Assembly: GCA_963530135.1 (NCBI GenBank)
Contig: CAUSBS010000003.1
Span: 40,373-104,372, forward strand
Direction of reading: 5' to 3'
DNA length: 64,000 bases
From: an uncultured Candidatus Saccharibacteria bacterium
GTDB taxonomy: Bacteria > Patescibacteriota > Saccharimonadia > Saccharimonadales > Saccharimonadaceae
The first letter of the stretch is position 1. Every line of letters starts with the position of its first letter. The translations under genes were made by a program, and so were the position numbers. Below are positions 29,614-64,000 of the stretch, one piece after another. Under the pieces are notes generated by a model. It was not told the DNA's origin and did no database searches. It was given only the letters and a program-made list of their open reading frames with translations.

Positions 29614-29615
29614 TC

Positions 29616-29707: not shown

Positions 29708-29779
29708 GTGATGCATATTATAACAGAAAGTCCGCTAGCGGTTGCAACTAGAGCGGCTTTTTGTCTATAATAAAAAGCA

Positions 29780-36000: not shown

Positions 36001-36315
36001 ATGTGTTTAGAAAAAACAACAACCCCAGATGGCAGAAGAGCCCCCAGGTACGTACAGGACGTACTTCGTGTGTTAGAGTATAATGATGATGGTATACCCA
36101 CCAAGGTTCAGACTCGCCTGGGTATCGTAGCGCTCAATGTTACCCACTGGCTACCCATTGAGCACACCACACACTACGAAGGGACTGCACTATTTCCAAA
36201 GGGAGATAACGATGAGACTAGCGACACAACCAATCCCCAAGCCTTCTCTCTGACGATGTATGACACCAAGCACAATAATGTAGTGGGAGAATTAAGACCT
36301 CTTTTTCTCTACTAA
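36001..36315 (+). CDS. hypothetical 104-aa protein
   Basis: ORF immediately downstream of a strong promoter. It is convergent with the next gene, with a 24-nt 3' overlap. Confidence 0.45.
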   Translation: MCLEKTTTPDGRRAPRYVQDVLRVLEYNDDGIPTKVQTRLGIVALNVTHWLPIEHTTHYEGTALFPKGDNDETSDTTNPQAFSLTMYDTKHNNVVGELRPLFLY

Positions 36316-40351: not shown

Positions 40352-42508
40352 CTACTCAAACCGTCGCCGCAGCGTGATAATGTCCATCCGCGCTAAGTCC
40401 TCGGTGGGCAGCTGCCGCATATATTCAATTACCCGGGCTGCCAGCGCCGGATCAGGACAATCATCCCTGATTGACGGCTGCCGACCAGTCTGCAGTGCCG
40501 CCAGCGCTGTTCGCATCTGCCGCCAAAAGGTATAATAATCAAGCTTAATCTTGACGTGATGACCACCAGCATCTTCGAGCACAAAGCCCTCAACTCGCTC
40601 ACCCTGCCACCGATACGCCATGCCGTGAAGCTGGCCAAACCACGTCATAAACTCCCTCCACGACGAAAACTCCGCCGCCAGACGCTTGCTGTTCGCCCCG
40701 ATCTCGCGTGCAAATCGCTCCCGCTCCTGCCGATCGACCGCTTCGTATGCAACCTGACGCTTGACGATATCGAGCAGCACCAACTTGTCTGACTCATACG
40801 CGATAATATGCGGATCAAATCGCGGCAACACAACCTCAAACAATAGGCACGCATTATGACGGCGCAGATAATCAGTAATATACGGTAGTTTGTCTCGAAA
40901 TTGCTCCAAAAACTCTCGCCGAAAGGCTGCTGCATAGTCACCCTCGGTCGTCGACTTTGACGCGATCACCAACCCGCCCGCCGCCGAATCATACCCGACC
41001 AACCCCAAAAAGCCATTCTCCTTCACCCACGCCCGCACCGGAAAGGCCATCGTCTGCTCCAGTGCCGCTAGTTCAGTATCGCGCCGCTCGCCGATGTTAA
41101 AAAACTTATCATAGGCCCGAATCACGATTTCGTTTGTCAGCGTATTGAGAAACAGTCCGCGCGCTCGCATCGTCTGCGTCGTCCATGCTTGGCGATAAAA
41201 TGCCTCGGGCTTGAAATTAAACGAGCTGATATCACCCGGCAGAATTGATTCACGAATGTAGCGATTCTGCCGCAGCTGGCTTAGGAACGCTGCGTTTTCT
41301 GGATACAGCCGCGCTGCTGCCTGTTGATTTTGAATAGCGATCGGTGTCATGCCATTCTCGTCCAGCCGCACTGTTCGCAGCTCGCCGCCAAACTCAACCT
41401 TTCCCTCCAAATTGTAGCACCGTTCGTTGTACCGCGTAGGGTAATTTTGCCTATTGCGATGTCCATGAACCTGAAACGTCGCATCATCAGTCTGCGCCAT
41501 AAATGCATTATCCACCGCCCCAACCTCATCATACGCCCCCACGCCATGGATCAGCTGGCTGGTCGCCACCAATGGTAACCGCTCCGGCAGCATACTAAGT
41601 CCACCATGCGTCACCAACACTGTTTGCCCTCGAAATTGGTACAAAATATATTGATCCATCCGCCGCATCAGCCGTGCTACCTTACGCTTATCAATACCTG
41701 CCGCCTCCAGCTGTGGCTGCGTTTGTTCGCTAAATACCCGCGCCGCAACCGGCTGATCGGTTGCCCACTGCCAGAGATACAGCTCGTGATTACCCTCGAC
41801 GAACCGCACGTTTGGCCGGTCAAGCAACTCGTCACAAACAAATCGCATCACCGCATCATTCTCCGTGCCGCGATCTAATAGATCACCGACAAAAATATAC
41901 AGTTCATCATCCCGAAGCGGATACCGCTCGAAATATTCCTTCAGCGGCGTAAAGCACCCCTGCACATCGCCGATATGATGAATCGCCCGATACCTATCAA
42001 CGTTCTCTGGCTGATTGGTAAGCAGCTGATTCACCTCCTCAGCCGTCCGCACCACCGTCACCCATTTCGGCAGTGAACTTCGCTGCAGTCGCCGATGCAT
42101 ACGCTCAAGCACACTACTCGGCACCACCTTATGGCTCGGCCGCTCCCTGTTACGCTCTTGACACACCGCCAGCGGTACATCGGCAAAATCAATCACCACC
42201 AGCCGGTAGCGATATTTCCGACATAGCTCGCCGTACGTCTTGAAATAATTTGGCGTCGTGTGTGTTGCATCAACCACCGTCGTCTCACCCCGCGTCATCC
42301 GCTGCTCCAGCATCTCGTGTAATAGCCGCCACACCATTGCATCCTGACGCGACGGCATGGTCGTTTGTCCGTCAATCATCAGCTGCGGCGACGCCAGCAT
42401 CAGCCGTATCATGTCCGGCGACAGCGTATAATTATCAAGCCCCTGTTCCGCGAGAAACGTCGACTTACCAGAGCCGGGAATCCCTCTGGTTACCAGTAAC
42501 AGCCGCAT
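40352..42508 (-). CDS. trifunctional polynucleotide 5'-kinase / 2',3'-phosphatase / ligase-type nucleotidyltransferase (bacterial Pnkp-like RNA repair enzyme)
   Basis: P-loop GIPGSGKST. Calcineurin-type motifs GDVQGC, GDLLDRG, GNHE, THGG and HGH. Ligase motifs I VKENG, III LLFEVV, IV EGFVLE and V HVKIK. Confidence 0.7.
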   Translation of the reverse strand: MRLLLVTRGIPGSGKSTFLAEQGLDNYTLSPDMIRLMLASPQLMIDGQTTMPSRQDAMVWRLLHEMLEQRMTRGETTVVDATHTTPNYFKTYGELCRKYRYRLVVIDFADVPLAVCQERNRERPSHKVVPSSVLERMHRRLQRSSLPKWVTVVRTAEEVNQLLTNQPENVDRYRAIHHIGDVQGCFTPLKEYFERYPLRDDELYIFVGDLLDRGTENDAVMRFVCDELLDRPNVRFVEGNHELYLWQWATDQPVAARVFSEQTQPQLEAAGIDKRKVARLMRRMDQYILYQFRGQTVLVTHGGLSMLPERLPLVATSQLIHGVGAYDEVGAVDNAFMAQTDDATFQVHGHRNRQNYPTRYNERCYNLEGKVEFGGELRTVRLDENGMTPIAIQNQQAAARLYPENAAFLSQLRQNRYIRESILPGDISSFNFKPEAFYRQAWTTQTMRARGLFLNTLTNEIVIRAYDKFFNIGERRDTELAALEQTMAFPVRAWVKENGFLGLVGYDSAAGGLVIASKSTTEGDYAAAFRREFLEQFRDKLPYITDYLRRHNACLLFEVVLPRFDPHIIAYESDKLVLLDIVKRQVAYEAVDRQERERFAREIGANSKRLAAEFSSWREFMTWFGQLHGMAYRWQGERVEGFVLEDAGGHHVKIKLDYYTFWRQMRTALAALQTGRQPSIRDDCPDPALAARVIEYMRQLPTEDLARMDIITLRRRFE

Positions 42509-49890: not shown

Positions 49891-49998
49891 ATGAGCCAAA
49901 AATAGTGTATCATAGAAGCAGCGGTCTGGCTAGCCCCGCAATTGGTAGGCGGATTGCAAAACTTGACAATGATTATAAGAAAGAGGATAATAACGCGC

Positions 49999-50406
49999 AT
50001 GAAGAGGTTTTTCGCAGGTATCACTAGCATCATGTTGACCATCGCTGTCGGCACGGTGGTTTTGGGCACTCCGGTATTCGCACTCGGCGAGGGCGGCGTC
50101 ACTCGCGGCATCAATGATGCGCGTGGCGACGGCGTACCAACCAACCTAACCAATGGCGATAGTTCGCTGGTGAGAAAGATTATCAACATCATGCTCTATT
50201 TCATCGGTATCCTTGCCGTAGTTATGTTAATCTTTGGTGGTTTTCGCTATGTTGTTTCCAGTGGCAACAAGGATGCTGTCACCTCGGCAAAGAATACAAT
50301 CCTCTATGCCATCATTGGTCTACTCGTCGCCCTGTTCGCCTACGCCATTATTCAATTTGTCCTCAATACCGTCGTTGGTCTCAGCGGTAACTCTACTGAC
50401 GTATAG
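49999..50406 (+). CDS. T4SS-type pilin-like protein (VirB2/TrbC-like), unlinked seventh paralog
   Basis: Signal peptide MKRFFAGITSIMLTIAVGTVVLGTPVFA. C-terminal two-helix module reads LYFIGILAVVMLIFGGFRYVVSSGNKDAVTSAKNTILYAIIGLLVALFAYAI. Confidence 0.65.
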   Translation: MKRFFAGITSIMLTIAVGTVVLGTPVFALGEGGVTRGINDARGDGVPTNLTNGDSSLVRKIINIMLYFIGILAVVMLIFGGFRYVVSSGNKDAVTSAKNTILYAIIGLLVALFAYAIIQFVLNTVVGLSGNSTDV

Positions 50407-50437
50407 CGGATCATGCCGCTCATGGTATACTAGACAT

Positions 50438-50968
50438 ATGGAAGAGCAGCCACACGTAACCGATACCGAAAATACTCAACAAGATGCGGCCCAGCCGACA
50501 ACTGATTTATCGCAGCCTATCGCCTGGCAAGCCCCTGAGGGTATGCAAATCCACCGCACAACGGGCTGGTATATCGCTGTTGGTTTCGTGGTGCTCGCTC
50601 TGATGGCACTGGCGATTTTTGTTTTTAATAGCTGGACATTCGCAATTTTGCTACCGATTATGGCGGCGGCACTCATATTGCTGCGGTCGCGACCATCGGT
50701 AATGGTTAATTACGCCATCAGCCCCAAGGGAGTTTACGTCGCCGACCGCTTGTATGATTTTAGTGAGTTTCGAGCCTTTGGGCTGGGTCAAGACGGCGAT
50801 CAGCACTCGGCAGTGTTACTGCCGGTCAAGCGGTTCTCGCCAGCACTGACCATCTATTTTTCTGAGGCCGAAGGTGAAGCGATCGTTGACATGCTGGGGG
50901 CGCGGCTACCAATGCAGGAAATTGCGCCGGATGCGCTCGAGAAGCTCATTCGGATCATCAGGCTATAG
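50438..50968 (+). CDS. hypothetical 2-TM membrane protein
   Basis: Start set at ATG 50438. Two adjacent TM helices are followed by a small soluble domain. Confidence 0.45.
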   Translation: MEEQPHVTDTENTQQDAAQPTTDLSQPIAWQAPEGMQIHRTTGWYIAVGFVVLALMALAIFVFNSWTFAILLPIMAAALILLRSRPSVMVNYAISPKGVYVADRLYDFSEFRAFGLGQDGDQHSAVLLPVKRFSPALTIYFSEAEGEAIVDMLGARLPMQEIAPDALEKLIRIIRL

Positions 50969-51077
50969 CTTGCCCCGAGCTAACAGGTGTGCTAGAATAC
51001 AAAAGTTCATTGCCGCTGGCATTGAAAGCACTTTATATTTTTGTTATAGCCAATCGGACTTGTCTGAAAGGCTGTAT

Positions 51078-51154
51078 GCACCCGTAGCTCAGCTGGATAG
51101 AGCGTTGGCTTGCGGAGCCAAAGGTCGTACGTTCGAATCGTGCCGGGTGTACCA
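51078..51154 (+). tRNA. tRNA-Arg(GCG), CCA encoded
   Basis: Hand fold: GCACCCG acceptor, D-arm GCTCAGCTGGATAGAGC, anticodon loop UUGCGGA, T-arm GTACGTTCGAATCGTGC. Confidence 0.8.
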
Positions 51155-51166
51155 CATTAGCTTTAT

Positions 51167-51254
51167 GGAGAGATGCAGGAGTGGTTGAACTGGCCGCTCT
51201 CGAAAAGCGGTATGGGGCAACCCATCGAGGGTTCGAATCCCTCTCTCTCCGCCA
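51167..51254 (+). tRNA. tRNA-Ser(CGA), CCA encoded
   Basis: Hand fold: anticodon stem CCGCT/AGCGG with loop CUCGAAA, and a long variable arm. Confidence 0.85.
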
Positions 51255-51277
51255 GAATCCAGTCGCTACGATTAATT

Positions 51278-51367
51278 GGAAGGGTGACCGAGTGGTTGAA
51301 GGTACCGGTCTTGAAAACCGGCGTGCGGTAACACGTACCGAGGGTTCGAATCCCTCCCCTTCCGCCA
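51278..51367 (+). tRNA. tRNA-Ser(UGA), CCA encoded
   Basis: Hand fold: anticodon stem CCGGT/ACCGG with loop CUUGAAA, and a long variable arm. Confidence 0.85.
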
Positions 51368-51509
51368 GACACGATATCATGAAAGAAAGATTAGAAATAG
51401 TAACCAAGCAGGGGGTCGCTACGATAGCAACCCTCGTTTCATTAGCGCTATCAGCGTCCAGCCGCCAGGGCCATCCTGAAAATACGAACACTCCGACAGA
51501 GCACCATGT

Positions 51510-51962
51510 ATGAAAATCACCATTCTTACCATCGGCAAGCGACACGAACCCTGGGTAGAGCCGGGCATTGGACGCTTTTTAGAGCGCCTCAGAGCACCGT
51601 TCGCCGCAGAAATGATCATCATCCCACATTCTGGCCAAACTGGCGACAGAGCACGCCAGGACGAGTCGGAACGCTTGATATCTCGCCTCAAGCCGCACGA
51701 CTTCGTCATCCTACTCGACGAACGTGGCCGCAACCTGAGTTCGCCAGAACTATCACGGCTCATCCTTGATCATACCGATCAGCACATCGTCATCATCATT
51801 GGCGGAGCATATGGCGTCACCGAGATACTTCACCAGCGAGCCGACGTCGTTTGGTCGCTATCGCGCCTGGTATTTCCACATCAACTGGTGCGGCTCATAC
51901 TCGCCGAGCAGCTGTACCGCGCCCAAGAGATCGCTCGGGGCAGTGCGTATCATCACAACTAG
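51510..51962 (+). CDS. rlmH: 23S rRNA (pseudouridine1915-N3)-methyltransferase
   Basis: Contains MKITILTIGKRHEPWV and IIGGAYG, with a SPOUT C-terminus FPHQLVRLILAEQLYRA. Confidence 0.88.
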   Translation: MKITILTIGKRHEPWVEPGIGRFLERLRAPFAAEMIIIPHSGQTGDRARQDESERLISRLKPHDFVILLDERGRNLSSPELSRLILDHTDQHIVIIIGGAYGVTEILHQRADVVWSLSRLVFPHQLVRLILAEQLYRAQEIARGSAYHHN

Positions 51963-53249: not shown

Positions 53250-53300
53250 CCCATAGAGGCGAAAAGCACGAAACTATCAAATCAAACTACTGTAAAAACT

Positions 53301-53323
53301 AACCCCCGGAAACACCGGGGGTT
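53301..53323. terminator. bidirectional terminator between hsp20 and the pilin operon
   Basis: AACCCCCGG-AAACA-CCGGGGGTT forms a perfect 9-bp stem. Confidence 0.7.
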
Positions 53324-53344
53324 ATAAAGATCCTGGCTTATATC

Positions 53345-53725
53345 CTACGAGCCAACACCAGTAGAGGTGATCAGGACGAAGTTAACAATAGCATAGGCAA
53401 AGATTGCAATCACCAGACCAATCACCGCGTACATAATGGTGTTTTTGGCAGTAGTTACCTTACTTGAGTCGCCAGATGAAGTCGTGTAAAGGATACCACC
53501 CCAGATCAACATCACCACCGACAGAATACCGACAAAGTAGAGAATACCGTTGACGACATTCTTGACGAGATCATTCGGACGATCAATACCAGCGGCCGCA
53601 CCCTCGCCCTTAGCGGCTTCTGCACCATTCCTGAGCGTATATTGTGCGTTCGCTACTGGTACTGTTGCAAACGCCAGCACCGTCATAGCGAGTACGCCAG
53701 CGATCATAACTTTGAGTTTATTCAT
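53345..53725 (-). CDS. T4SS-type pilin-like protein, paralog 1
   Basis: Signal peptide ..TVPVANA|Q. Module reads LYFVGILSVVMLIWGGILYTTSSGDSSKVTTAKNTIMYAVIGLVIAIFAYAI. Confidence 0.7.
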   Translation of the reverse strand: MNKLKVMIAGVLAMTVLAFATVPVANAQYTLRNGAEAAKGEGAAAGIDRPNDLVKNVVNGILYFVGILSVVMLIWGGILYTTSSGDSSKVTTAKNTIMYAVIGLVIAIFAYAIVNFVLITSTGVGS

Positions 53726-53783
53726 GTATTACTTCCTTGTTTAGGGTTAATGTCACTTCAGCTGTTATTCTATCATTATTTAG

Positions 53784-54158
53784 CTACTTAAACAAGCCAA
53801 AGACCCAGTTAACAATAGCATACGACAGCACCACCACAATGATACCAATCACCGCGTACATGATGGTGTTTTTGGCAGTAGTTGCTTTTTGGCTATCGCC
53901 CGACGAGGTGATATATTGAAAGCCGCCCCAGATCATGATAATAACTGCTATCGCACCAACAAAATAGAGAAAGATATTCACTACATCACCGATAGTAGTG
54001 CCGATAGGCTTCGTGCTCATCTCCGGTGTTCGAGCTGCCTCAACACCCTTAGTAAACTGAGCCGAGGCGGATGGCAGAGCAACTGGCGTTACGGCCGCCA
54101 CAATAGCGACCACCAGTGATAGAGCAGCGGCTATAAGGGGGTTTTTATATCGTTTCAT
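53784..54158 (-). CDS. T4SS-type pilin-like protein, paralog 2
   Basis: Start set at ATG 54158 behind an AAGGAG SD. Signal peptide ..LPSASA|Q. Module reads MIWGGFQYITSSGDSQKATTAKNTIMYAVIG. Confidence 0.7.
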   Translation of the reverse strand: MKRYKNPLIAAALSLVVAIVAAVTPVALPSASAQFTKGVEAARTPEMSTKPIGTTIGDVVNIFLYFVGAIAVIIMIWGGFQYITSSGDSQKATTAKNTIMYAVIGIIVVVLSYAIVNWVFGLFK

Positions 54159-54174
54159 ACATTTCTCCTTTTTC

Positions 54175-54540
54175 TTATATTTTGCCAAATACGAAGTCAA
54201 CAATAGCGTAGGACAGCAGCGCGACTGCAACACCAATCACTGCGTACATGATCGTTGACTTAGCAGCCTTGACCTTGCTCGAGTCGCCAGCCGAGGTTAC
54301 GTACTGAAAACCGCCAACAATAATCATGATAACGGAAACTGCGCCGAGAATTAATAGAACGGCATCGACAAGATTCTTAAACAACGGCTGTATCGTTGCG
54401 CCACGGTTTTTACAAACCTCACCACTAGAGCCCGAGCAGGCACCGTAAATATCGACGCTCTGGGCAGATGCGCTTGATGCTACGACTAGCGGAGCAATGA
54501 GCGCTGCCATCATACCGATAATCACTACGAGTTTTTTCAT
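54175..54540 (-). CDS. T4SS-type pilin-like protein, paralog 3 (Cys pair in variable region)
   Basis: Signal peptide ..ASSASA|Q, Cys pair in GACSGSSGEVCKN, and module IIVGGFQYVTSAGDSSKVKAAKSTIMYAVIG. Confidence 0.7.
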   Translation of the reverse strand: MKKLVVIIGMMAALIAPLVVASSASAQSVDIYGACSGSSGEVCKNRGATIQPLFKNLVDAVLLILGAVSVIMIIVGGFQYVTSAGDSSKVKAAKSTIMYAVIGVAVALLSYAIVDFVFGKI

Positions 54541-54842
54541 ATTGCCGATCCTTTCATGCCACTAATGACAAAGTTAGTTATGAGAAACGCAGAGAGAATG
54601 ATGATGATGCCGATTATTGTGCCAAGGATGGTATTTTTCGCCTTCACAACATTATTGCTATCACCACCAGCCCGAACATAATTAATACCAGCAATCACTA
54701 GCATCAAAATTGCAATTGCCCCGGCAAAGAAATACACCGTATTGAGGATACTGCTAAGCGCATCCGTCGAGGCATTATTTGTCGGAATGCCGAGTGAGTC
54801 TGGCGATCCCAATAATCCAGCCACAAAGCGCATCAACGTCAT
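54537..54842 (-). CDS. T4SS-type pilin-like protein, paralog 4 (no evident signal peptide)
   Basis: Module reads LVIAGINYVRAGGDSNNVVKAKNTILGTIIG. ATGA overlaps occur at both ends. Confidence 0.6.
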   Translation of the reverse strand: MTLMRFVAGLLGSPDSLGIPTNNASTDALSSILNTVYFFAGAIAILMLVIAGINYVRAGGDSNNVVKAKNTILGTIIGIIIILSAFLITNFVISGMKGSAI

Positions 54843-55297
54843 GATCGCGGTAACCCCAATCCGTCGGCTATAATGTTCACCAAGGCAACTGAAGCAATCG
54901 CAATCACCAGACCGATAGCCGCATTGATTACTGTTTTCATACCATTCGCCATTTGGTTTGCATCACCGCCACTTGTCAGATACAGGAAGCCGCCATAGAT
55001 CACAAAACCAACCGTCACAAAACCAGCCAACTGCAATAAATCCTCGACAACGTTCAAGATGACCCGCCAGATGAAACCGCTGAGTGTCGTGTGATTGTTT
55101 GGGTCATTTTGGGCGCGCTTATCACTATTGTCAACGACCGCCTTGATACTACAGTCGTCCTTGGTTAGTCCGTCATACCACGGCTTGAGCGTTAGAATAT
55201 TGCCGCCACAGGCCGCATTGGCTGGCGTTGCCTGAAGCATCGACATCATCAACGACCCCGCAATCATCAGCCCAAGTGCAATCACAAGGTGCTTCAT
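54839..55297 (-). CDS. T4SS-type pilin-like protein, paralog 5 (Cys pair, longest variable region)
   Basis: Signal peptide ..ATPANA|A, Cys pair in CGGN..DDCSIK, and module VIYGGFLYLTSGGDANQMANGMKTVINAAIG. Confidence 0.65.
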   Translation of the reverse strand: MKHLVIALGLMIAGSLMMSMLQATPANAACGGNILTLKPWYDGLTKDDCSIKAVVDNSDKRAQNDPNNHTTLSGFIWRVILNVVEDLLQLAGFVTVGFVIYGGFLYLTSGGDANQMANGMKTVINAAIGLVIAIASVALVNIIADGLGLPRS

Positions 55298-55674
55298 CAG
55301 AACACTCCTCCCGGGATCAGGAAATTAGTGATGGCTACAAAAAATGCAAAGATAAGGAGGCCGATAGCAGTGTTAGCCCAGAGATCTTTGGCCTTTTTAA
55401 TATTTTCTGGGCTACCACCGGCAGCAGAGTAGAGAATACCACCAAAGATAACCGCGCCAACCGCCAGAATACCGATACCGGCAGACATGATTTGGATGAC
55501 AATTTTAATAATGCCGAGAATGGCAGCGTCACCAGTTGCACCGCCACAATTAATGATCGAGGTCGGTGCATCGCCACATTTACTCTCGGCAAATGCAACA
55601 CCGCCAGATAACATGGCGCCGCAGGTAATAGTCGTGAGGAGGGCAGTAGTGATGAGAATATTTCTTTTTGTCAT
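55297..55674 (-). CDS. T4SS-type pilin-like protein, paralog 6 (Cys pair)
   Basis: Start set at ATG 55674. Signal peptide ..GGVAFA|E, Cys pair in KCGDAPTSIINCGG, and module VIFGGILYSAAGGSPENIKKAKDLWANTAIG. Confidence 0.65.
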   Translation of the reverse strand: MTKRNILITTALLTTITCGAMLSGGVAFAESKCGDAPTSIINCGGATGDAAILGIIKIVIQIMSAGIGILAVGAVIFGGILYSAAGGSPENIKKAKDLWANTAIGLLIFAFFVAITNFLIPGGVF

Positions 55675-55695
55675 ATACGGATCTCTTACCCTTAA

Positions 55696-55724
55696 ATTGT
55701 AAAATAGCGGCAGGAAAAATGCAA
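55696..55724 (-). promoter_or_regulatory. candidate promoter of the pilin operon (TTGCAT-17 nt-TACAAT)
   Basis: Minus-strand hexamers at 55724..55719 and 55701..55696. Confidence 0.45.
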
Positions 55725-55732
55725 ACGATTTC

Positions 55733-55761
55733 TTGAAAAAGTCATAAAAGTTTGCTATCAT
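55733..55761 (+). promoter_or_regulatory. candidate promoter of tRNA-Asp (TTGAAA-17 nt-TATCAT), back-to-back with the pilin promoter
   Basis: Hexamers at 55733..55738 and 55756..55761. The tRNA 5' end lies 12 nt downstream. Confidence 0.5.
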
Positions 55762-55773
55762 ACGAAAAGTTAT

Positions 55774-55851
55774 GCGCCCGTAGTGAAGTTGGCCTATCAC
55801 GCCTCCCTGTCACGGAGGAGATCGCCGGTTCGAATCCGGTCGGGCGCGCCA
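55774..55851 (+). tRNA. tRNA-Asp(GUC), CCA encoded
   Basis: Hand fold: GCGCCCG acceptor, anticodon stem CCTCC/GGAGG with loop CUGUCAC, T-arm GCCGGTTCGAATCCGGT. Confidence 0.88.
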
Positions 55852-56048
55852 GAATGAGAATGTTACTACCCGAGCAGCCCATCTTTGTAGAGCAGGGGCT
55901 GTTTTTGTTTACTTTATTGCCGTTAGGGTATTGCTAAATATACAGAATGTGTTACAATAATATTATTCAGAGTTCCAATTATCTACTCTGAGGTGGATTA
56001 AAACTATCATGTGACTGGCCACCGGCCAGAGAAAGGACTCCAAGCGTT

Positions 56049-57020
56049 ATGGAAAGACACGACCATGACCCAAGTAGTTCATTAGAAGGAAACAGATTAA
56101 CTCGTCGCGGAGTGTTAGCTGGGGTTGTCGGCGGAGCAACAATGCTGATTGTTGGCTGCGGTAAGGATCGTATGGCTGTTCCCCCTGATTACTCTACACG
56201 AAGTGCTTCACCATCAGAATCACCATCCACCTCACCATCACCATCTGAGACTGTTGATCCGGAAGTGGCGGCACGAATGCGGGCCAGAGAAGAATACGAA
56301 GAACAAGTAAAAAAAATTGATGAAATACCGTACGACGAATTCATTAAGCTACCGCCAGAGGAGAGAAACAAGATTCTCCAAGCAGAAATCAACTACATGG
56401 AGAAGTCTGGCCGCGCAAAAGATAAAACAGATCATATACTCTACCCAAAAGACAGTCTGCCCTTTGGTGACTATTATAAGAAGTCACCTGCGGACCAAGA
56501 CCCAAAAAAGATGCTCACTGATCCGTTTCTTGCTGTCCAATTTGCCCTCTATGGAAGGTTTACTTACACAGATGACGATATAAAACAAAACTACGAGGAT
56601 TATGCTAAAAAGTTAGTCTCAGAAGCCTTTTTGAATCCCCAAATGGACATGGATAAGCTGCTTGAGGAGATGCGGGCCGGCAAAGTCTCGGATGAAGAGT
56701 ATTTCGCTAAACGTAAAGTAATGGAGCTCATTCATAAAAGAGCAGAGCAGATTAGGTCTAACTCCGGTAGTTCCGAAGACGACGTCGAGCTCTGGAAAAT
56801 GAAAGACATTGAGGGCTTTCCTGTCGATCAGTCGGATGTAGTGGTTGACCCCAAAACGGGCAAGCCGCTTGAGACACATATCACACACTTCTATTCCTAC
56901 GACGGGGATAAAAGAGGCTCTACTCCAGATGGCCAATTCTACACAATTGCTTCGGATCCAACAGTGAATAGGTGGAAGATTGCAGGATCTTCACACTCAG
57001 GCCCCGTTCTCTCTAGATAG
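56049..57020 (+). CDS. predicted Tat-signal lipoprotein of unknown function
   Basis: The N-terminus has a twin-arginine motif TRRGVLAG followed by the lipobox LIVGC and a Ser/Pro-rich linker. Confidence 0.55.
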   Translation: MERHDHDPSSSLEGNRLTRRGVLAGVVGGATMLIVGCGKDRMAVPPDYSTRSASPSESPSTSPSPSETVDPEVAARMRAREEYEEQVKKIDEIPYDEFIKLPPEERNKILQAEINYMEKSGRAKDKTDHILYPKDSLPFGDYYKKSPADQDPKKMLTDPFLAVQFALYGRFTYTDDDIKQNYEDYAKKLVSEAFLNPQMDMDKLLEEMRAGKVSDEEYFAKRKVMELIHKRAEQIRSNSGSSEDDVELWKMKDIEGFPVDQSDVVVDPKTGKPLETHITHFYSYDGDKRGSTPDGQFYTIASDPTVNRWKIAGSSHSGPVLSR

Positions 57021-57040
57021 TGTCAATAACGCGTCCAACA

Positions 57041-57068
57041 AAAGAAGAGCTAAATTAGCTCTTCTTTT
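57041..57068 (+). terminator. rho-independent terminator after the lipoprotein gene
   Basis: Perfect 12-bp stem AAAGAAGAGCTA / TAGCTCTTCTTT with a 3-nt loop and a T-tract. Confidence 0.7.
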
Positions 57069-57095
57069 GAATTACTAACAATAGCGTGGTAATAT
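57067..57095 (+). promoter_or_regulatory. promoter TTGAAT-17 nt-TGgTAATAT, 9 nt upstream of ATG 57105
   Basis: Hexamers at 57067..57072 and 57090..57095, with TG at 57087..57088. No SD. Confidence 0.6.
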
Positions 57096-57104
57096 ATTCT
57101 CATA

Positions 57105-60100
57105 ATGCTTACGCAAAAAAAGACCCTGCATCAACGCATTCGCATTACCTTGGTTGGGCTTGCTGCACTATTGATCATTCCGATGCTCATGACGTTTTTT
57201 GTATTGTCGCCGACCGCTAGTGCGGCTCGAACTCCGCTTGATTATTCACCACAGCTCACACAGGTAAAGCAGCTTCTACTTGCTCGTGCCATGAGAATGT
57301 GTATCATTAATGGTAATGGCGGCCCCGGATTTGGCGGAAATCTTACTGCAGAACGGATAGCACGCGGTGACTGGGGTGGGAGCTTTACCACCACCGTCGG
57401 CCCGATTCTTGATGGTGATAATGATGGACAGTTTGACTGTAAAGAAGTGGTATCCGCTACTCGAGATGTATTCGGCTATAGCTCTTTTATCGATATGTTT
57501 TGCGCCCTAAAGGGTGAGTGGCGAGATGATGCCAATCTCGATTGTCTCAGTAACATAGGCAAACCAGAATATAGTGGAGACAAGTGGAATATACCGAAAG
57601 ACAGAGGTGTATACGCAATTCAAGTTCTTGAAAAAAAGGGCGGCAGAAGTCTCAAGTTTGATTCAGCACTGGTCAACTATTCACTAGCTATGTCAGTACT
57701 CTTATCAGGCCAAAATCTTGGCTGCAAGGCTGAGTGGCGAGGATTTACTAGTGGTGAAGGTGCGCCAGATAACATTAGGGATCTTTTAAGGGGTGAGAAT
57801 AATAGGCCGGTGAATATTGCTTTAGCTGATGGCACATCGGCAGAGGGGCTTTATTATATCCCAAACCTAAATAAAAAAGTGAGGTTATCTTCCAAAGTTG
57901 AATCACCCTATGACCTTCCCGATGGCGTAAAGCCAGATATGTCGTGTGAAGAGATTGCAGCATGGGCATCAAGGAGTGCCGAGGGAGCGGCGCAATCAGC
58001 AAAAACCGACTCTACTGAAAATACCCGTAAGGCTATCCGTAGCGCCCTTATAAAAAGGTGTGTCCAGTCACGAGGTGGAGGACCTGCACAACAAATTTGC
58101 GAAAGTCAGGTTGACGGCTGGATGAACGCATGTAAAGACAAGATGCCGTCAAGCGGCGCTGTGGCAAACTCCAGCGAATATATTAAATGTATTGCTGATC
58201 AGTCTGGGTATAATGAAAAAGAGATTAAAGACACCCTCTCTAACGTCTCTGCCGATCCCCCTGCTGCCCAGAATAAGAGTGATGAAAAAAAACCAGAGTG
58301 TGCCGTCAAGGACCTTGGCTGGCTCATTTGTCCGGTCGTTAATTTCTTAGCTGATATTTCGGATGCAGCTTTTGCCATGATCGCCGACAATTTCCTAAAG
58401 ATTGAACCAGGCATCGCCTCTGGAGGCGAGGTACAGGCAGCCTGGGGAATTATGCGCAACATTGCCAATGGTGCATTTATCATCATGTTCCTGGCAATTA
58501 TCATATCTCAGCTCACTGGCTTTGGAATCTCAAACTACGGCATTAAAAAGATGCTACCGCGACTCATTATCGCCGCAATCCTCGTGAACTTATCGATTTA
58601 TATCTGTCAAATTGCCGTCGACCTGTCTAATATCCTTGGCTATGGTCTGCGCGCTGGGCTCGGTAATGTTGGTGACGAAATTGCCCGGGCAAATGAAATT
58701 TTTCAATCAGGTCAAGGGCGTGGTACATGGGGAGGGTTTGCACTAACTATCCTCGCCGCAGGCACCGCCGGGATTCTCGCCCTCGCAGTCTTGATAGGAG
58801 CACTCGTTTCGGGGCTAGTTGTTATGGCAACCATTGCCGTATTGCTAATCGCCCGCAAAGCACTTATTGTCATCCTTATTGTCATCTCGCCGCTTGCTTT
58901 TGTCGCCTTTCTACTACCAAACACCGAAAAATTCTTTAGTAAATGGCGCTCCATCTTTGTGGGGCTACTCATGGTCTTTCCAACAATCGGCCTACTGTTC
59001 GGTGGTGGTATACTGGCAGGAGCCATTGTTAAGGCCGGAGGTGGCAATGACACAATCATGCAGATTGTCGGTGAGCTAATCAAAGTCCTGCCGCTCATCG
59101 CCGTATGGAGTGTTCTCAAAAAAGCCATTGATGTCGCTGGATCAATCAGCCAACACATCAATAATGCCGGCGGCCGCCTCAGTGGCGGCGCCAGAAATTG
59201 GGCAAAGGGTGCATATGACAACTCCCGACTTGGTGAAATGGAAAAATTCCGCAAACAGCGGCGACAACGCCGCAAGGCCCTCATGCGAGCCGGGGCATGG
59301 AAGGGTGATGGGGCTATTGATAGAATACCCGTCATCGGAAGAAATGCAAGAGCCAGACGCAGCAAGGCATTCAACGAAAGTGTCTTTGCAAACAATCGCT
59401 TCCTCGGAGGAGACTATGGTATTCGTAGTGCTGCAGAGGGACAGGACGCGGTCGACGATGAAGAACGCAAGACAGCAGAGCGTATGCTCGACTATCGATA
59501 CAATGGCGATGCAGCTGCTGCGCTGAGGAGTGCAGGGGATAATGAAATGCTCAAGTATGTTGCTTCTAAAAAGCTTGCATCAACCGGCAAGCATGGCGCT
59601 CAGCAGATGTATGACTATCTCCAAAGCGGTGGAACTATCAGTACCCGCCGCATGGCAGAATCCCTCGTTAGTATGGAGCAGTACCATGCCGGACTATTTG
59701 AGATGGGTACAAGCGCTATTGACCAAATGGAGCAGCATGGAGCAACAACCGTCAGCTTTAGTCCACAGCAAATGGCCGAGTTGACCGCCAAGGGACTTAA
59801 TGGGTTGAGTGATGAAAAGCTAGCACGACAAGCATCTGGTGCAGTTAAGATTGCTGGTGAGACTGAGTTTACCAAGGGCGGCCAGAGAATGGTCGGTATT
59901 TCTGCCGAGCGGGCAGGCTCACTGCTAGATAATAAGCGTGTTAATACCTCAATATCAAGTAGTACACGTGCTGAGTTTGAGAATATACGAAACGGTGGCG
60001 GTAGAGCAGCCGAACCTCAGGAGCTACGAGTGCCACATGATATGAGCGGTGTCTCAGCAGCTGATGTTAAGAATACGATCAACGCCACAACGGAAATTCA

Positions 60101-60266
60101 TAACATCACCGAGGCAGTCCCGTCAGACACCCCAACGGGGCGAACGTTTGTCGCCGGAACAGGGAGGGGGCCAGCTCCACCACAACCACAATCTCCATCC
60201 CCAGCACCAGCTGATAATCAAAATAACCGTAACAATCGGAATAATAATCCGCCGACAACCAGCTAA
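57105..60266 (+). CDS. giant VirB6/TrbL-like polytopic membrane protein, paralog A (Cys-rich ectodomain, cytoplasmic C-terminal domain)
   Basis: N-terminal signal/anchor, a ~380-aa domain with ~14 Cys, then a multi-TM core (GISNYGIKKMLPRLIIAAILVNLS) and a long soluble C-terminus ending in a Pro/Asn-rich tail. Confidence 0.55.
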   Translation: MLTQKKTLHQRIRITLVGLAALLIIPMLMTFFVLSPTASAARTPLDYSPQLTQVKQLLLARAMRMCIINGNGGPGFGGNLTAERIARGDWGGSFTTTVGPILDGDNDGQFDCKEVVSATRDVFGYSSFIDMFCALKGEWRDDANLDCLSNIGKPEYSGDKWNIPKDRGVYAIQVLEKKGGRSLKFDSALVNYSLAMSVLLSGQNLGCKAEWRGFTSGEGAPDNIRDLLRGENNRPVNIALADGTSAEGLYYIPNLNKKVRLSSKVESPYDLPDGVKPDMSCEEIAAWASRSAEGAAQSAKTDSTENTRKAIRSALIKRCVQSRGGGPAQQICESQVDGWMNACKDKMPSSGAVANSSEYIKCIADQSGYNEKEIKDTLSNVSADPPAAQNKSDEKKPECAVKDLGWLICPVVNFLADISDAAFAMIADNFLKIEPGIASGGEVQAAWGIMRNIANGAFIIMFLAIIISQLTGFGISNYGIKKMLPRLIIAAILVNLSIYICQIAVDLSNILGYGLRAGLGNVGDEIARANEIFQSGQGRGTWGGFALTILAAGTAGILALAVLIGALVSGLVVMATIAVLLIARKALIVILIVISPLAFVAFLLPNTEKFFSKWRSIFVGLLMVFPTIGLLFGGGILAGAIVKAGGGNDTIMQIVGELIKVLPLIAVWSVLKKAIDVAGSISQHINNAGGRLSGGARNWAKGAYDNSRLGEMEKFRKQRRQRRKALMRAGAWKGDGAIDRIPVIGRNARARRSKAFNESVFANNRFLGGDYGIRSAAEGQDAVDDEERKTAERMLDYRYNGDAAAALRSAGDNEMLKYVASKKLASTGKHGAQQMYDYLQSGGTISTRRMAESLVSMEQYHAGLFEMGTSAIDQMEQHGATTVSFSPQQMAELTAKGLNGLSDEKLARQASGAVKIAGETEFTKGGQRMVGISAERAGSLLDNKRVNTSISSSTRAEFENIRNGGGRAAEPQELRVPHDMSGVSAADVKNTINATTEIHNITEAVPSDTPTGRTFVAGTGRGPAPPQPQSPSPAPADNQNNRNNRNNNPPTTS

Positions 60267-60290
60267 GACTATTGACTTTTCTCTATAAAA

Positions 60291-62921
60291 ATGCTACCAT
60301 TTCTAGTAATGGAGTGGTTACGTTCACAAGGGCGATCATCAATGCGATGGTTGCAGTGGTTCATATTGCTGGCGGCAGGTCTCCTAGTCAGTATTTTTTT
60401 GAGTACAGTCATAACCTCGAGCCAGGTATCGGCGGCAGATGCAAAGTGGGATAGCAGTAAAATATCCTACGACAACGAGACGTTTGAACGGGTTTCTGAT
60501 GCTGACAAACTAAAAGCCCTCGATTTAGGTGCGGACCAGATGGTCTACATGCCTAAGAAAACTGTGGCCAATAACCAAGATATTCGGGTTGTCCACTTTC
60601 CATCAACGGGCGACCTTGGGTCAATGACCTCGGTGTCCCTGACGACATTTACGTATACTTCGCCAAACACTTACACAAAGAAAGAATCGACTACACTATC
60701 AATTGACCCACCGAGCCAAAACTCTGCATCTTCATGTGAGGTTGCTGGCGGTATCGGCTGGATTCTTTGTCCTGTTTCGGCGTGGCTGGCCAGCTCCATC
60801 GACTGGATGTTTGGGGTGCTTAAAGGGTTTCTTGTAGTGCCACCACTTCAGACGGGCAATCAAGCTAGCGGTATTTTTCTAGCCTGGAACATTGTTCGCA
60901 ATATCGCCAACAGCATTTTTATTATCATGTTCATAGTCATTATTTATTCACAAATTACTTCTATGGGCATCTCCAATTATGGTATCAAAAAAATGTTGCC
61001 TCGTTTGATTATCGCGGCACTACTGGTTAACCTATCATTCCACATATGCGCCATACTTCTCGATCTGTCAAACATCGCCGGAAGCGCACTTCAGGACATG
61101 TTCATGAACATTCGTAACACGGTCGCTACCCTGGGCGGGTCAGCGCCACCATCCGACCCCATGACCTGGCAAGAGGTTACTTTCCAGATTTTGGGCGGAG
61201 CTGCCGGTGGTACAGCACTGGCCGCCGGGCTGATTATGCGGGCTGAGCTACTTCCTTTTGTTGTGCCACTTTTAACCGGGCTCAGTTTGGCGCTTCTTCT
61301 CGTGGTCGTTATCATGGCCGCTCGACAAGCACTAATTATCATTTTAATCATTGTTTCGCCGCTAGCTTTTGTGGCTTACTTACTGCCGGGGACAGAAAAG
61401 TGGTTTGATAAATGGAAGGATGTCTTCTTGACGATGCTGATATTCTTCCCGGGTTTTGCGGCAGCCTTTGGTGGGGCACAGCTCGCAGGCTCAGTCATTA
61501 TGCAAAACGCCGCGGGACCGAACGGGGCGGTGATGTACATCCTCGGTATGGCAGTTCAGATTGCGCCACTCGCTCTAACGCCGTTGATGATCAAGTTAGG
61601 TGGTGGGCTCCTCGGTAAATTCACCGGCCTGGTTAACGACCGCAGCAAGGGATTGTTCGACCGATCTAAGAACTGGGCAAAAGAGCGAAGCGAGATTACT
61701 AAGCGTAAAAAACTCAACAAACGTCCAAACAGCAAGTTTACCCCAACGGCATGGCGACGCAGACTGGCGCAGTCGTCTCAAAATCGTAAGGATATGCTCA
61801 AAGAGTTGCAAGATGAATCTGATGTTATACGAAGGGGGACTGGTTCCTATGCTAAGATTGATCAATACCGACGAATGGTTAACGAAGATAAAAAGGCTAA
61901 TGAGGGTCGGCTAGAGGACGCTTGGGGCAATCATCTGATGTCTAATTCTGCCGCCTTTGACCGATATGCACAAGCACAATCATGGTCTGAGCAGGCTGAG
62001 GCTTCTAAGGGAGCGGTTGATACTCATTATAAGTCGATGCGGGCACTCAAGCCTACCCAGACTAATGAGTTGTCTTCGTCGTTCCAAGAAAGCCTGGAGC
62101 GTGCCCGAGGAGCAGCGCAGCAAGTGGCTCTCCAGGGCCTGCAGAACGCTTCATCGCAGCGTGTTGCTGATGATCGATGGGCAAATGAATTGAAAGAAAA
62201 CGAGACGATGCGCGATCTGGCTGGACAGGTCGAACAAATATACTTCGGTGACAGTCGCGGTGCCGATCGAGCGATTGCCATGGCAGAACAAACGCTCAGC
62301 AATGCCTACAACGAAGGCGTCGAGAGCGCAAATCGCTTACTTGATCGATACAATGCCGATGAGTTTGACATGGTAGACATGGCTCTTGGTACTGTTGGCA
62401 GCGAGGTCAAAGGCATTACTGTCACCAGAGATGTCAAGGCTGCATCACTTCGCCGCGTTCTTGGCGGTAAGAACATTAAAGCCATTAAGTCGTTAACAAG
62501 CCAGCTTGACTTTGCTCACCTTGACGATGCCCTCGCCCAAGAAGCTGGCGACGCTCTCAAGAACAACCCAGCACGACCGTTCTGGATCGGATCTTCAATT
62601 GCTAATAAGATTAAGATTAATAATATGCCGTGGTCTGGCCAAGAGTTTATCACCCAAACGACCATTAAGGCACTTAGCGAGGATAAATTGTCGACCGAAG
62701 GCCTGGTCACGCAAGACGCTGTCTATCTTAATACCTTGGCCGATATGATTGAAAATTCAAACTTCCGAGGACAAATTTCACAACAGCATCTTCAGATTCT
62801 GCGCGACCGACTAAATGAGGTACAGACGGTTCCGCAGTACAGCGGTCGTATAGGTGAAAGTATCGGTGCAATTAAGCGAATGGAGGCGGCTCTTTCGTAT
62901 CTGCCGCCAACAGAAACCTAA
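60291..62921 (+). CDS. giant VirB6/TrbL-like polytopic membrane protein, paralog B (ATG 60342 behind AAGGG is the likelier start)
   Basis: Shares the core with paralog A (GISNYGIKKMLPRLIIAALLVNLS; GWILCPV versus GWLICPV). The ecto- and C-terminal domains differ. Confidence 0.55.
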   Translation: MLPFLVMEWLRSQGRSSMRWLQWFILLAAGLLVSIFLSTVITSSQVSAADAKWDSSKISYDNETFERVSDADKLKALDLGADQMVYMPKKTVANNQDIRVVHFPSTGDLGSMTSVSLTTFTYTSPNTYTKKESTTLSIDPPSQNSASSCEVAGGIGWILCPVSAWLASSIDWMFGVLKGFLVVPPLQTGNQASGIFLAWNIVRNIANSIFIIMFIVIIYSQITSMGISNYGIKKMLPRLIIAALLVNLSFHICAILLDLSNIAGSALQDMFMNIRNTVATLGGSAPPSDPMTWQEVTFQILGGAAGGTALAAGLIMRAELLPFVVPLLTGLSLALLLVVVIMAARQALIIILIIVSPLAFVAYLLPGTEKWFDKWKDVFLTMLIFFPGFAAAFGGAQLAGSVIMQNAAGPNGAVMYILGMAVQIAPLALTPLMIKLGGGLLGKFTGLVNDRSKGLFDRSKNWAKERSEITKRKKLNKRPNSKFTPTAWRRRLAQSSQNRKDMLKELQDESDVIRRGTGSYAKIDQYRRMVNEDKKANEGRLEDAWGNHLMSNSAAFDRYAQAQSWSEQAEASKGAVDTHYKSMRALKPTQTNELSSSFQESLERARGAAQQVALQGLQNASSQRVADDRWANELKENETMRDLAGQVEQIYFGDSRGADRAIAMAEQTLSNAYNEGVESANRLLDRYNADEFDMVDMALGTVGSEVKGITVTRDVKAASLRRVLGGKNIKAIKSLTSQLDFAHLDDALAQEAGDALKNNPARPFWIGSSIANKIKINNMPWSGQEFITQTTIKALSEDKLSTEGLVTQDAVYLNTLADMIENSNFRGQISQQHLQILRDRLNEVQTVPQYSGRIGESIGAIKRMEAALSYLPPTET

Positions 62922-62945
62922 GCTAATCTGCTATAATAATACTCA

Positions 62946-63839
62946 ATGGCTGTCTACAAAGTTCCTCAGGATGTGGAAGCTGATGACAAGCTGCTCGGGC
63001 CGTTTAGTTTCAAGCAGTTTGTTTTCCTGATCGTTGCGGTCGGTATGATTGCGCTGGCATGGGGACTGTTCTCGGTGCTGCCGCCACTAGCGATTATCCC
63101 GGTGCCGATTGCGCTGTTTTTTGGGGCATTAGCCTTGCCGCTGCGCAAGGATCAACCGATGGAGGTTTACCTCGCGGCAGTCATTTCGTTTATGCTCAAA
63201 CCCAAGCAACGGCTGTGGCGAGCCGATGGTACCGAACGAATGGTCGAGGTGATCGCCCCGCGGGTTGAGGAAAAACAATACGGTAAGGGGTATGATCAGG
63301 CTGAGGTTAATCGCCGGCTATCATACCTGGCGACACTGGTCGATACACACGGCTGGTCGGTGCGCGGCGTTGATAATCCAAACAGTTCGGTAAGGGGTAG
63401 CTCGATGCAGGCGGACTGGTATAATGAAGCCCAAGCCGCTCAGGATCCACTCGACCCAAGCAGCAAGACCGCACGCGCCTTTGAAACACTGATTGAGCGG
63501 GCTGACGAAAAGCGCCATGATGACATTGTCCAGCAAATGCAGCGAGCTCAAACCGCCCAGCCAGCCACACCCGCTCAAGATGACCAAGCCTACTCTCTAC
63601 AAACCTCAACCTTCAACCCATATCCAACTATGCAGCAGTCTATTATCACCCCTATCGGCGAGCAATCGGCTACACCTGCCCAAGATGACCAAGCCGCGCC
63701 CCCTAGCACATCACCCGTGTCGCCTGCTATAATGGACTTAGCGCGTAATCACAGCGACCTATCAGTCGCCTCGTTGCAACGAGAGGCTGGCCGTATCCAG
63801 AAAGAACACGATAAGGAAGTAGTGATTTCGCTTCACTAG
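62946..63839 (+). CDS. PrgI/VirB3-like T4SS membrane protein with long disordered C-terminal tail
   Basis: MAVYKVPQDVEADDKLLGPFSFKQFVFLIVAVGMIALAWGLF resembles the PrgI-family N-terminus plus a TM hairpin. The tail carries two ATPAQDDQA repeats. Confidence 0.55.
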   Translation: MAVYKVPQDVEADDKLLGPFSFKQFVFLIVAVGMIALAWGLFSVLPPLAIIPVPIALFFGALALPLRKDQPMEVYLAAVISFMLKPKQRLWRADGTERMVEVIAPRVEEKQYGKGYDQAEVNRRLSYLATLVDTHGWSVRGVDNPNSSVRGSSMQADWYNEAQAAQDPLDPSSKTARAFETLIERADEKRHDDIVQQMQRAQTAQPATPAQDDQAYSLQTSTFNPYPTMQQSIITPIGEQSATPAQDDQAAPPSTSPVSPAIMDLARNHSDLSVASLQREAGRIQKEHDKEVVISLH

Positions 63840-63850
63840 GTGGGATATCT

Positions 63851-64000
63851 ATGCAGCCGAATCAACAGCAATCATATCAATATCCATCAGATGCAGCTGC
63901 TGCATCACAGTTTGGTGCGCCGTCAAATCCGCCGACCATGCCGGGAGTTATTGCCTCTGGGCCCGACCCAGTCTCCGCAGAACCAACATCGCCGTACGCC
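63851..64000 (+). CDS. 5' end of a further ORF (Gln/Pro/Ser-rich N-terminus), truncated by the window edge
   Basis: My translation is MQPNQQQSYQYPSDAAAASQFGAPSNPPTMPGVIASGPDPVSAEPTSPYA, behind an AGGTGGG SD and with no stop. By position it could be a VirB4/PrgJ-type ATPase, but that cannot be seen from the sequence. Confidence 0.4.
   Translation, partial: MQPNQQQSYQYPSDAAAASQFGAPSNPPTMPGVIASGPDPVSAEPTSPYA

Follow-up and report, generated by a model that had tools for sequence, protein, structure and literature searches.

The 64,000-nucleotide stretch of contig CAUSBS010000003.1 analysed here, which we call the window, ends in a gene cluster that is a type IV secretion system (T4SS) adjoining the replication origin of a human-oral Saccharibacterium. 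Six genes for VirB2-like pilins on the minus strand are separated by a tRNA-Asp gene from a plus-strand operon, which encodes a lipoprotein, two VirB6-like giants, a PrgI/VirB3-like protein and a TrsD-like protein whose open reading frame (ORF) leaves the window. The region downstream was read from six metagenomic contigs (human and oral samples among others), found by exact-protein look-up of the PrgI gene and matching the window at 98.9-100% identity along the ~11 kb that they have in common. There the TrsD-like gene is followed by VirB4, an M23 protein, a lysozyme and M23 protein, two small anchored proteins and a convergent dnaN, which adjoins the cluster ~10 kb past the window end. From the pilin array to dnaN the cluster displays a pilus-assembly-type component set with a single ATPase, two wall hydrolases and lineage-specific accessory proteins. 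A previous sequence-only reading had taken the locus for an apparatus of host contact or exchange rather than a conjugative element; gene content, synteny and published transposon sequencing (Tn-seq) of Southlakia epibionticum ML1 support this view, which is not new. The six-pilin array was part of that reading, while a seventh pilin and its partner with two transmembrane (TM) segments (49942-50968) lay outside its coordinates and were missed. The features are listed below, in window coordinates unless a contig or a neighbouring gene is named.

49942-50406, plus strand: seventh, solitary VirB2-like pilin; PF18895 E 2e-9; translation may in fact start at the ATG near 50002
50438-50968, plus strand: two-TM hairpin protein of 176 aa, partner of the seventh pilin; hydrophobic segment at residues ~50-95, numbered on the scanned 185-aa translation (50411-50968)
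53300-53324, minus strand: terminator-like hairpin of 10 pairs, 7 of them G-C, with a T tail; from a consensus scan only
53345-53725, minus strand: pilin 1, 126 aa; PF18895 E 1.6e-13, TrbC E 1.1e-5; signal peptide and two TM helices
53784-54158, minus strand: pilin 2, 124 aa; PF18895 E 2.7e-15
54175-54540, minus strand: pilin 3, 121 aa; PF18895 E 2.3e-11
54537-54842, minus strand: pilin 4, 101 aa, the shortest; PF18895 E 3.7e-10
54839-55297, minus strand: pilin 5, 152 aa, the longest; PF18895 E 1.3e-8; extra Cys-containing N-terminal region
55297-55674, minus strand: pilin 6, 125 aa, the most divergent; PF18895 E 6.4e-6, exactly at the gathering score
55774-55851, plus strand: tRNA-Asp(GTC), in the divergent spacer between the pilin and VirB6 operons
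56049-57020, plus strand: lipoprotein, 323 aa; RRGVLAG motif and lipobox LIVGC, Ser/Pro linker, alpha+beta domain
57105-60266, plus strand: VirB6-like protein A, 1053 aa; a signal anchor, then an external domain of ~400 aa, a polytopic TM core and a hydrophilic C-terminal domain
60291-62921, plus strand: VirB6-like protein B, 876 aa, paralogue of A
62946-63839, plus strand: PrgI/VirB3-like protein, 297 aa; PF12666 E 4.4e-12, 46.8 bits against a cut-off of 27, residues 5-90
63851-64000, plus strand: first (5') part of the TrsD/TraC-N-like gene, the ORF that runs out of the window; 356 aa when complete on the contig
Contig L001 11948-13831, directly after the TrsD-like gene: VirB4, 627 aa; P-loop_TraG E 1.4e-27
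Downstream of VirB4: hydrolase 1, 1023 aa; M23 peptidase at the C-terminal end
After the 1023-aa protein: hydrolase 2, 579 aa; Phage_lysozyme2 and M23
Between the hydrolases and dnaN: two anchored proteins of 142 and 435 aa, matching no family

All six arrayed genes encode VirB2/TrbC-like pilins, as the sequence-only reading had proposed: each matches PF18895 (E 2.7e-15 to 6.4e-6), and three of them also match TrbC/VirB2 in Pfam, more weakly. A TM scan places the VirB2 hairpin of two hydrophobic helices after a signal-like segment in five of the six, pilin 4 having the hairpin without the N-terminal segment. Pairwise identity among the six arrayed pilins and the solitary one is 21-53%, and a sequence search with pilin 2 against the PDB found nothing. 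The whole array also matches NCBIfam NF045849 (Mbov_0395 pilin-like conjugal transfer protein), pilin 2 at 51.6 bits, over the curated cut-off of 40, and the others at 18-38 bits. Small VirB2-like proteins hence occur in at least one monoderm conjugative lineage, which bears on the origin of the pilins; since the match to this Mycoplasma family exceeds the cut-off, the pilin-like genes may have been inherited from the system's monoderm ancestor. For the two-TM partner of the seventh pilin (50438-50968), a Pfam scan returned no significant match.

The two giant proteins were accepted as members of the VirB6/TrbL family, as first read from the sequence, although the case is weak for the window proteins alone. 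VirB6-like A, with its TM core at ~448-672 (5-6 TM segments predicted) and a C-terminal hydrophilic domain of ~380 aa, scores below the threshold of Pfam TrbL/VirB6 (E 6e-4, 20 bits under a cut-off of 25.9), while carrying a precomputed match to PF19590 TrbL_3; its homologues fill more than 1300 clusters, all with precomputed TrbL_3 and named oral Saccharibacteria among them. VirB6-like B has no Pfam match of its own, but is 38% identical to A over 381 residues of the membrane domain (E 2e-54), and the tandem pair is kept in most related loci. When diverse members of the family were scanned individually, 17 of 19 matched Pfam TrbL. Searches of the PDB with the sequence of A and with a 19-sequence VirB6 profile found nothing, and the AlphaFold2 (AF2) model of A is poor (predicted local distance difference test score, pLDDT, 58.7; predicted template-modelling score, pTM, 0.35). 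In a Foldseek search of this model against 350,000 PDB chains, the top five were all TrwI/VirB6 chains of the R388 T4SS, at non-significant E 0.16-0.8. Paralogy, TrbL matches and the concordant Foldseek ranking thus place the large proteins within the VirB6/TrbL family and argue against the possibility, raised with the original reading, that they are unrelated to it.

The PrgI/VirB3-like assignment held as well (PF12666 E 4.4e-12). Behind the PrgI domain extends a Q/P/A-rich tail with internal repeats, which accounts for two thirds of the protein and matches no known domain; in its gene, two direct-repeat pairs of 20-27 nt with a spacing of 105-107 nt (63273-63399 and 63564-63695) repeat the peptide ATPAQDDQA. 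The further ORF seen to leave the window starts at 63851 and is probably TrsD-like on the near-identical contigs, with a precomputed match to PF26593 TraC-like and a position upstream of virB4 kept in nearly all loci; a separate Pfam scan and a PDB sequence search with it returned nothing. An apparent split of this gene on contig L003 is an artefact of a 10-N scaffold gap. On contig L006 (derived from the Human Microbiome Project), 4 nt (CCAG) are missing near 11184 (L001 11184-11187) in the low-complexity 5' part of the gene, whose called ORF is thereby shortened to 224 aa; the loss reflects a faulty assembly or else a naturally frameshifted allele. The VirB4 encoded next is closer to the solved monoderm Thermoanaerobacter VirB4 domain (4AG5, E 1.8e-49) than to the diderm TrwK (1e-4), and its motifs are intact (Walker A/P-loop AKSGAGKS, Walker B MLIVDE). 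Both hydrolases show an N-terminal TM anchor in a TM scan.

We screened the 64-kb window and 10 kb downstream on the near-identical contigs for mobility and DNA-transfer functions. In agreement with the sequence-only reading, no relaxase, coupling protein or integrase was found in this span. No relaxase family occurs among the large proteins of the window or the downstream genes, a few short or unannotated ORFs not having been scanned, and no VirD4/TcpA-type coupling protein lies within the 74 kb, the sole AAA_10/P-loop_TraG protein being VirB4. Repeats resembling attachment (att) sites and bracketing the cluster or the tRNA-Asp are absent, the only direct repeats there reflecting pilin paralogy and tRNA arms; the region downstream, where an ordinary integrative and conjugative element (ICE) would have shown its remaining genes, has neither relaxase, type IV coupling protein (T4CP) nor integrase and no att-like repeats. 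Pfam scans of the locus and downstream proteins returned no VirB7, VirB9 or VirB10 family, and no clear VirB8 homologue was found. The G+C content of the locus (0.46-0.52) lies inside the overall range of the window (0.44-0.56). The 20 other largest window proteins are housekeeping (PolA, DnaG, RpoD, arginyl-tRNA synthetase (ArgRS), CTP synthase, ribonucleotide reductase (RNR), GroEL, Mur ligases, TsaD, valyl-tRNA synthetase and similar). The flanking genes hsp20, comFC and rlmH, first described as housekeeping, are no arbitrary neighbours but belong to a conserved neighbourhood, their synteny with the cluster being kept in about 40 species.

The pilin and VirB6 operons do diverge around the tRNA-Asp(GTC), as noted at the outset, and promoter-like sites in the spacer point in both directions. 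The tRNA gene, present in the spacer of 47 of 63 related loci, has its own promoter-like site (55733-55761) and is followed by a hairpin and a T run, while the strong terminator-like hairpin at 53300-53324 closes the pilin array on its 3' side, where hsp20 and the pilin operon converge. At the pilin/VirB6 spacer (window 55000-56000) the cumulative GC skew is lowest. A replication origin at this spacer, suggested by the skew turn at ~55-56 kb, was rejected: DnaA boxes are at chance level (16 against 13.2 expected) with none in the spacer, so that the turn most likely reflects the switch of coding strand. ORFs of 100-170 aa at 51033-51545 (minus strand) and overlapping it are spurious, as they overlap a tRNA-Arg/Ser/Ser cluster (51078-51367).

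In order to place the locus among its relatives, species-representative genomes were scanned with a VirB6 alignment, which gave 372 relatives, 78 loci being kept, nearly all from Saccharibacteria or Saccharimonadales. The closest relative is an uncultured Saccharibacteria metagenome-assembled genome (MAG) with 97% identity. Gene order is kept in about 50 species representatives, in line with the synteny check that the sequence-only reading had suggested, and about 40-50 loci share the succession solitary pilin, two-TM protein, rlmH, comFC, hsp20, six pilins, VirB6-A, VirB6-B, PrgI, TrsD, VirB4 and hydrolases. The locus occupies 2.4-28.6 kb of the chromosome record in two complete genomes, those of oral taxon 488 strain 106.1.1 and Nanosynbacter sp. 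TM7-008. As judged from these sequences, the same origin-proximal site in about 50 species representatives, the two complete genomes included, argues against a mobile element. Saccharibacteria-type genes also turned up in records filed under other taxa. The 674,119-bp scaffold_1 of 'Arthrobacter sp. SW1' (L028, NZ_MJLT01000001.1) encodes at 10001-11383 a Saccharibacteria-type VirB6 38% identical to that of the window; as the scaffold is as large as a whole Saccharibacteria genome, it may represent an epibiont that went unrecognised when its genome was assembled together with that of its Actinobacterial host. Short contigs of a Sphingobacteriales MAG (L048), a Spirochaetia MAG (L049) and a Chloroflexi MAG (L083) hold Saccharibacteria-type VirB6/PrgI/TrsD/VirB4 genes and are probably mis-binned contigs of the candidate phyla radiation.

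Position-by-position orthology across 50 six-pilin loci indicates that the pilin array is old and largely fixed in order across species. Pilins 5 and 6 match their window counterpart in all 50 loci and positions 1 and 4 in 39 of the 50, whereas positions 2 and 3 are mixed inside a pil1/2/3/7 subgroup. One-to-one orthology between species was accepted for positions 4-6 and for the solitary pilin. A plus-strand pilin lies upstream in most loci that extend that far; in all 42 six-pilin loci carrying one, its best window match is the gene at 49942-50406, and the two-TM partner adjoins it in about 40 loci. We also compared the window with a strain contig (L002) that is otherwise 99.96% identical: 56 of the 59 substitutions fall in pilins 2-5 (window 53784-55297, L002 887-2400), with ~5-6% divergence in pilins 2 and 3. 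To judge from this pattern, the patch looks like an imported homologous recombination tract of ~1.5 kb. Diversifying selection at this hot spot was rejected, as 47 of the 56 changes are synonymous and only 9 alter an amino acid, a ratio that indicates purifying selection on the pilins. A stable array and a synonymous patch fit distinct, non-redundant pilin roles better than antigenic variation. Within VirB6-A, L002 further shows an indel of 48 nt, located in the external domain.

The 323-aa protein had been called a Tat lipoprotein. That it is a lipoprotein is solid, the lipobox Cys37 being invariant in 19 homologues, while the Tat signal is borne out only in part, the RR pair being missing in several of the 19, the closest ones included. 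Its homologues form only 21 clusters and are restricted to the clade of the window itself; the protein is possibly the counterpart of the non-essential Tat/NTF2-like SEML1_0012 of ML1. A search of its AF2 model (pLDDT 70.8) against the PDB for a VirB8/NTF2-like fold gave no significant match, DotI, IcmL-like, TraK and NTF2-like entries appearing only at E 1.6-3.5.

Elsewhere in the window, a 718-aa protein (40352-42508, minus strand) has three domains, AAA_33 kinase, Metallophos phosphoesterase and T4-type RNA ligase, arranged as in the bacterial RNA-repair enzyme Pnkp, which is notable in a reduced genome. A GDSL lipase/acylhydrolase domain occurs in an 812-aa protein (20578-23016, minus strand), and proteins of 362-590 aa at 574-2346, 15582-16670 and 36292-37470, all on the minus strand, match no Pfam family.

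The system is already known, its non-conjugative, host-interaction reading has been published (PMC10633639, PMC12102498, PMC12857230), and the window adds an orthologous copy from an uncultured oral species. McLean et al. (2020) found a VirB4/VirB6/PrgI region to be conserved across Saccharibacteria, together with an array of 4-6 small, secreted proteins that carry signal peptides (PMC7427843). The Tn-seq of Wang et al. (2023) established that ML1 needs the cluster for epibiotic growth; the authors remarked on its pilins and on the lack of coupling and relaxase proteins, and judged DNA transfer improbable (PMC10633639). The survey of Patescibacteria by Quiñonero-Coronel et al. (2025) defined a distinct VirB4 clade allied to MPF-FATA, the mating-pair formation class of monoderm systems, with TrsD, PrgI and VirB6; the VirB2 arrays comprise 2-11 genes, relaxases are almost absent and dnaA/dnaN lie close by (PMC12102498). 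A FEMS review of 2025 offers the speculation that system and pilus together act as a conduit for signals or uptake (PMC12857230), and a 2026 preprint reports tubular structures, possibly T4SS pili, at a parasite-host interface. The Tn-seq experiment proposed with the sequence-only reading has thus been published for a related species (PMC10633639); the rows below are taken from the Tn-seq table and supplement annotation of that study.

dnaA and dnaN: replication, essential at T1-T2
recF: replication and repair, non-essential, growth defect at T2
SEML1_0004-0005: small proteins, essential
SEML1_0006: lysozyme protein, essential
SEML1_0007: large protein, essential
SEML1_0008: VirB4, essential
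SEML1_0009: TrsD-like, essential
SEML1_0010: PrgI, essential
SEML1_0011: VirB6-like, essential
SEML1_0012: Tat signal, NTF2-like, non-essential
SEML1_0013: VirB6, essential at T1-T2
SEML1_0014-0019: six pilins, essential
SEML1_0020: hsp20, essential
SEML1_0021: comFC, non-essential
SEML1_0024: solitary pilin, non-essential

Matched by gene order and annotation rather than by sequence, the ML1 system (SEML1_0004/0006-0019) resembles the window locus gene for gene: read from the dnaN end, small anchored proteins, the lysozyme protein, the large M23-type protein, VirB4, TrsD-like, PrgI and two VirB6-like proteins are followed by six pilins, hsp20, comFC, tRNA-Ser and the solitary pilin. Pilin lengths are alike, the fourth being the shortest (312 bp in ML1) and the fifth the longest, and both clusters are devoid of relaxase and T4CP. 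The lipoprotein gene, in contrast, precedes both VirB6 genes in the window, whereas SEML1_0012 lies between them; the distal small genes encode proteins of 142 and 435 aa on the contigs of the window, against a 211-aa PEGA-domain and a 249-aa protein in ML1; and recF stands between dnaN and the cluster in ML1 but is absent there on L001. Broad synteny links the window as a whole to the initial ~65 kb of the ML1 chromosome. In the ArgRS/CTP synthase/RNR/ABC-transporter block (window 16685-32133, SEML1_0027-0036), the strands of ArgRS, CTP synthase and RNR are inverted relative to the T4SS cluster.

We consider it highly probable that the locus encodes a non-conjugative T4SS derived from MPF-FATA, with no relaxase or coupling protein nearby, which serves as a VirB4-driven pilus or conduit to the host. 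In such a system the pilins would be inserted into the membrane by Sec, and VirB4 docked on a platform of PrgI and VirB6 would extract them and polymerise a pilus or tube, in keeping with established T4SS biology, where pilus assembly requires VirB4 and not VirD4. The hydrolases would open the cell wall for passage of the tube, which would contact the host Actinobacterium and serve as a conduit. As no substrate-recruiting coupling protein is present, the uptake or exchange of material from the host seems to us somewhat likelier than an export of effectors or DNA in the classical manner. Several points weigh against this interpretation. No pilus of the system has been purified, or imaged with confirmed identity; essentiality comes from another genus, that of ML1; and for the window proteins alone the VirB6 match is below the Pfam threshold, the AF2 membrane core being of low confidence. 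Moreover, VirD4-like genes occur elsewhere in many Patescibacteria genomes, including ML1, where the gene is non-essential (PMC12102498), and outside the 64 kb and 10 kb examined the genome may encode a distant coupling protein. As a speculative extension, which we hold to be rather doubtful, the six positionally fixed pilins (individually essential in ML1, the seventh being dispensable) might co-assemble into a heteropolymeric VirB2 tube, VirB4 alone driving the import into the epibiont of macromolecules from the host (RNA, nucleotides or lipids, for instance). Such a T4SS would work as a feeding tube, and its filament would differ in architecture from the conjugative pili known so far, which are homopolymeric. 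The patescibacterial T4SS belongs to the small number of molecular handles on the way in which ultra-small epibionts exploit their hosts, and is the first T4SS reported essential for its carrier bacterium.

The interbacterial-killing T4SS of Xanthomonas and the 89K system of Streptococcus suis offer analogues for a machine that exports effectors. Under this alternative, toxins, hydrolases or host-manipulating proteins would be injected or released into the host bacterium. Protein export is one of the options of Wang et al. (PMC10633639), exporters lacking a T4CP exist, such as Ptl and Brucella VirB (PMC12102498, PMC12857230), and the very large hydrolase-containing proteins of the operon (1023 and 579 aa) could act on the host wall. 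These hydrolases, however, are N-terminally membrane-anchored, like the VirB1-type assembly factors of Gram-positive systems, no coupling protein is nearby to recruit cytoplasmic substrates, and no candidate effector or immunity pairs were recognised, so that we regard export as unlikely, if the strongest of the competing explanations. Somewhat less probable still is nucleic-acid uptake in the manner of H. pylori ComB, a more specific version of the conduit in which host DNA or RNA would be a source of nucleotides or serve transformation. ComB likewise works with neither T4CP nor relaxase, comFC belongs to the conserved neighbourhood in about 50 loci, nucleotide synthesis is lacking in these organisms (PMC12857230, PMC10633639), and the 2026 preprint connects host RNA with parasitism by Patescibacteria and speaks of T4SS-like pili. 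On the other hand, the T4SS of ML1 is essential, yet deletion of comEC had no effect on viability and abolished competence only (PMC12857230), comFC is non-essential, competence is credited to type IV pili and not to the T4SS, and the VirB7/9/10 core of ComB-type uptake is wanting here.

That the cluster is a remnant or cryptic part of an ICE, with relaxase, T4CP and integrase elsewhere or degraded, we consider very improbable. Its machinery descends from conjugative MPF-FATA systems, a tRNA gene lies inside the locus and the pilins match the Mycoplasma ICE family, all of which speaks for this reading. Such an origin is at odds with the identical position beside dnaN/dnaA across about 50 species, the lack of att repeats and of integrase, relaxase and T4CP within 74 kb, a G+C content within the window range, and genes that are under purifying selection and essential in ML1. 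We retain the VirB4-driven pilus or conduit to the host as the best explanation.

Several known systems invite comparison. The T4SS region of Nanosynbacter lyticus TM7x has VirB4, VirB6, PrgI and a 'Sec-secreted array', as does the cluster described here (PMC7427843), and five Nanosynbacter genomes (L022, L064, L069, L072 and L074) show the same synteny. The small proteins of TM7x, read in 2020 as possible secreted effectors by analogy with pertussis toxin (PMC7427843), now correspond to VirB2-like pilins. H. pylori ComB and Bordetella Ptl resemble the window locus in having no coupling protein and no relaxase, and ComB, with homologues of VirB2, 3, 4 and 6, imports material; both nevertheless differ in being diderm systems with a VirB7/9/10 core, and ComB works with ComEC, which is dispensable for growth of ML1 (PMC12857230). 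The Mycoplasma ICE pilin-like family NF045849 shares with the window small VirB2-like proteins in a wall-less monoderm conjugative system, but as single genes in mobile ICEs with relaxase and T4CP, in contrast to the fixed multi-gene chromosomal array of the window. The Gram-positive MPF-FATA systems (pCF10 PrgH/I/J/K/L, pGO1 Trs, ICEBs1 Con/CwlT) have, like the cluster described here, VirB3 (PrgI), VirB4 (PrgJ), VirB6-like and, with some probability, TrsD-like proteins together with membrane-anchored bifunctional wall hydrolases, and no outer-membrane core; the VirB4 encoded past the window end matches a monoderm structure best. Unlike these conjugative systems, the window locus has six plus one VirB2-like pilins and a VirB6 gene that is duplicated and greatly extended, does without coupling protein, relaxase, oriT and surface adhesin, and is chromosomal, origin-proximal and vertically inherited.

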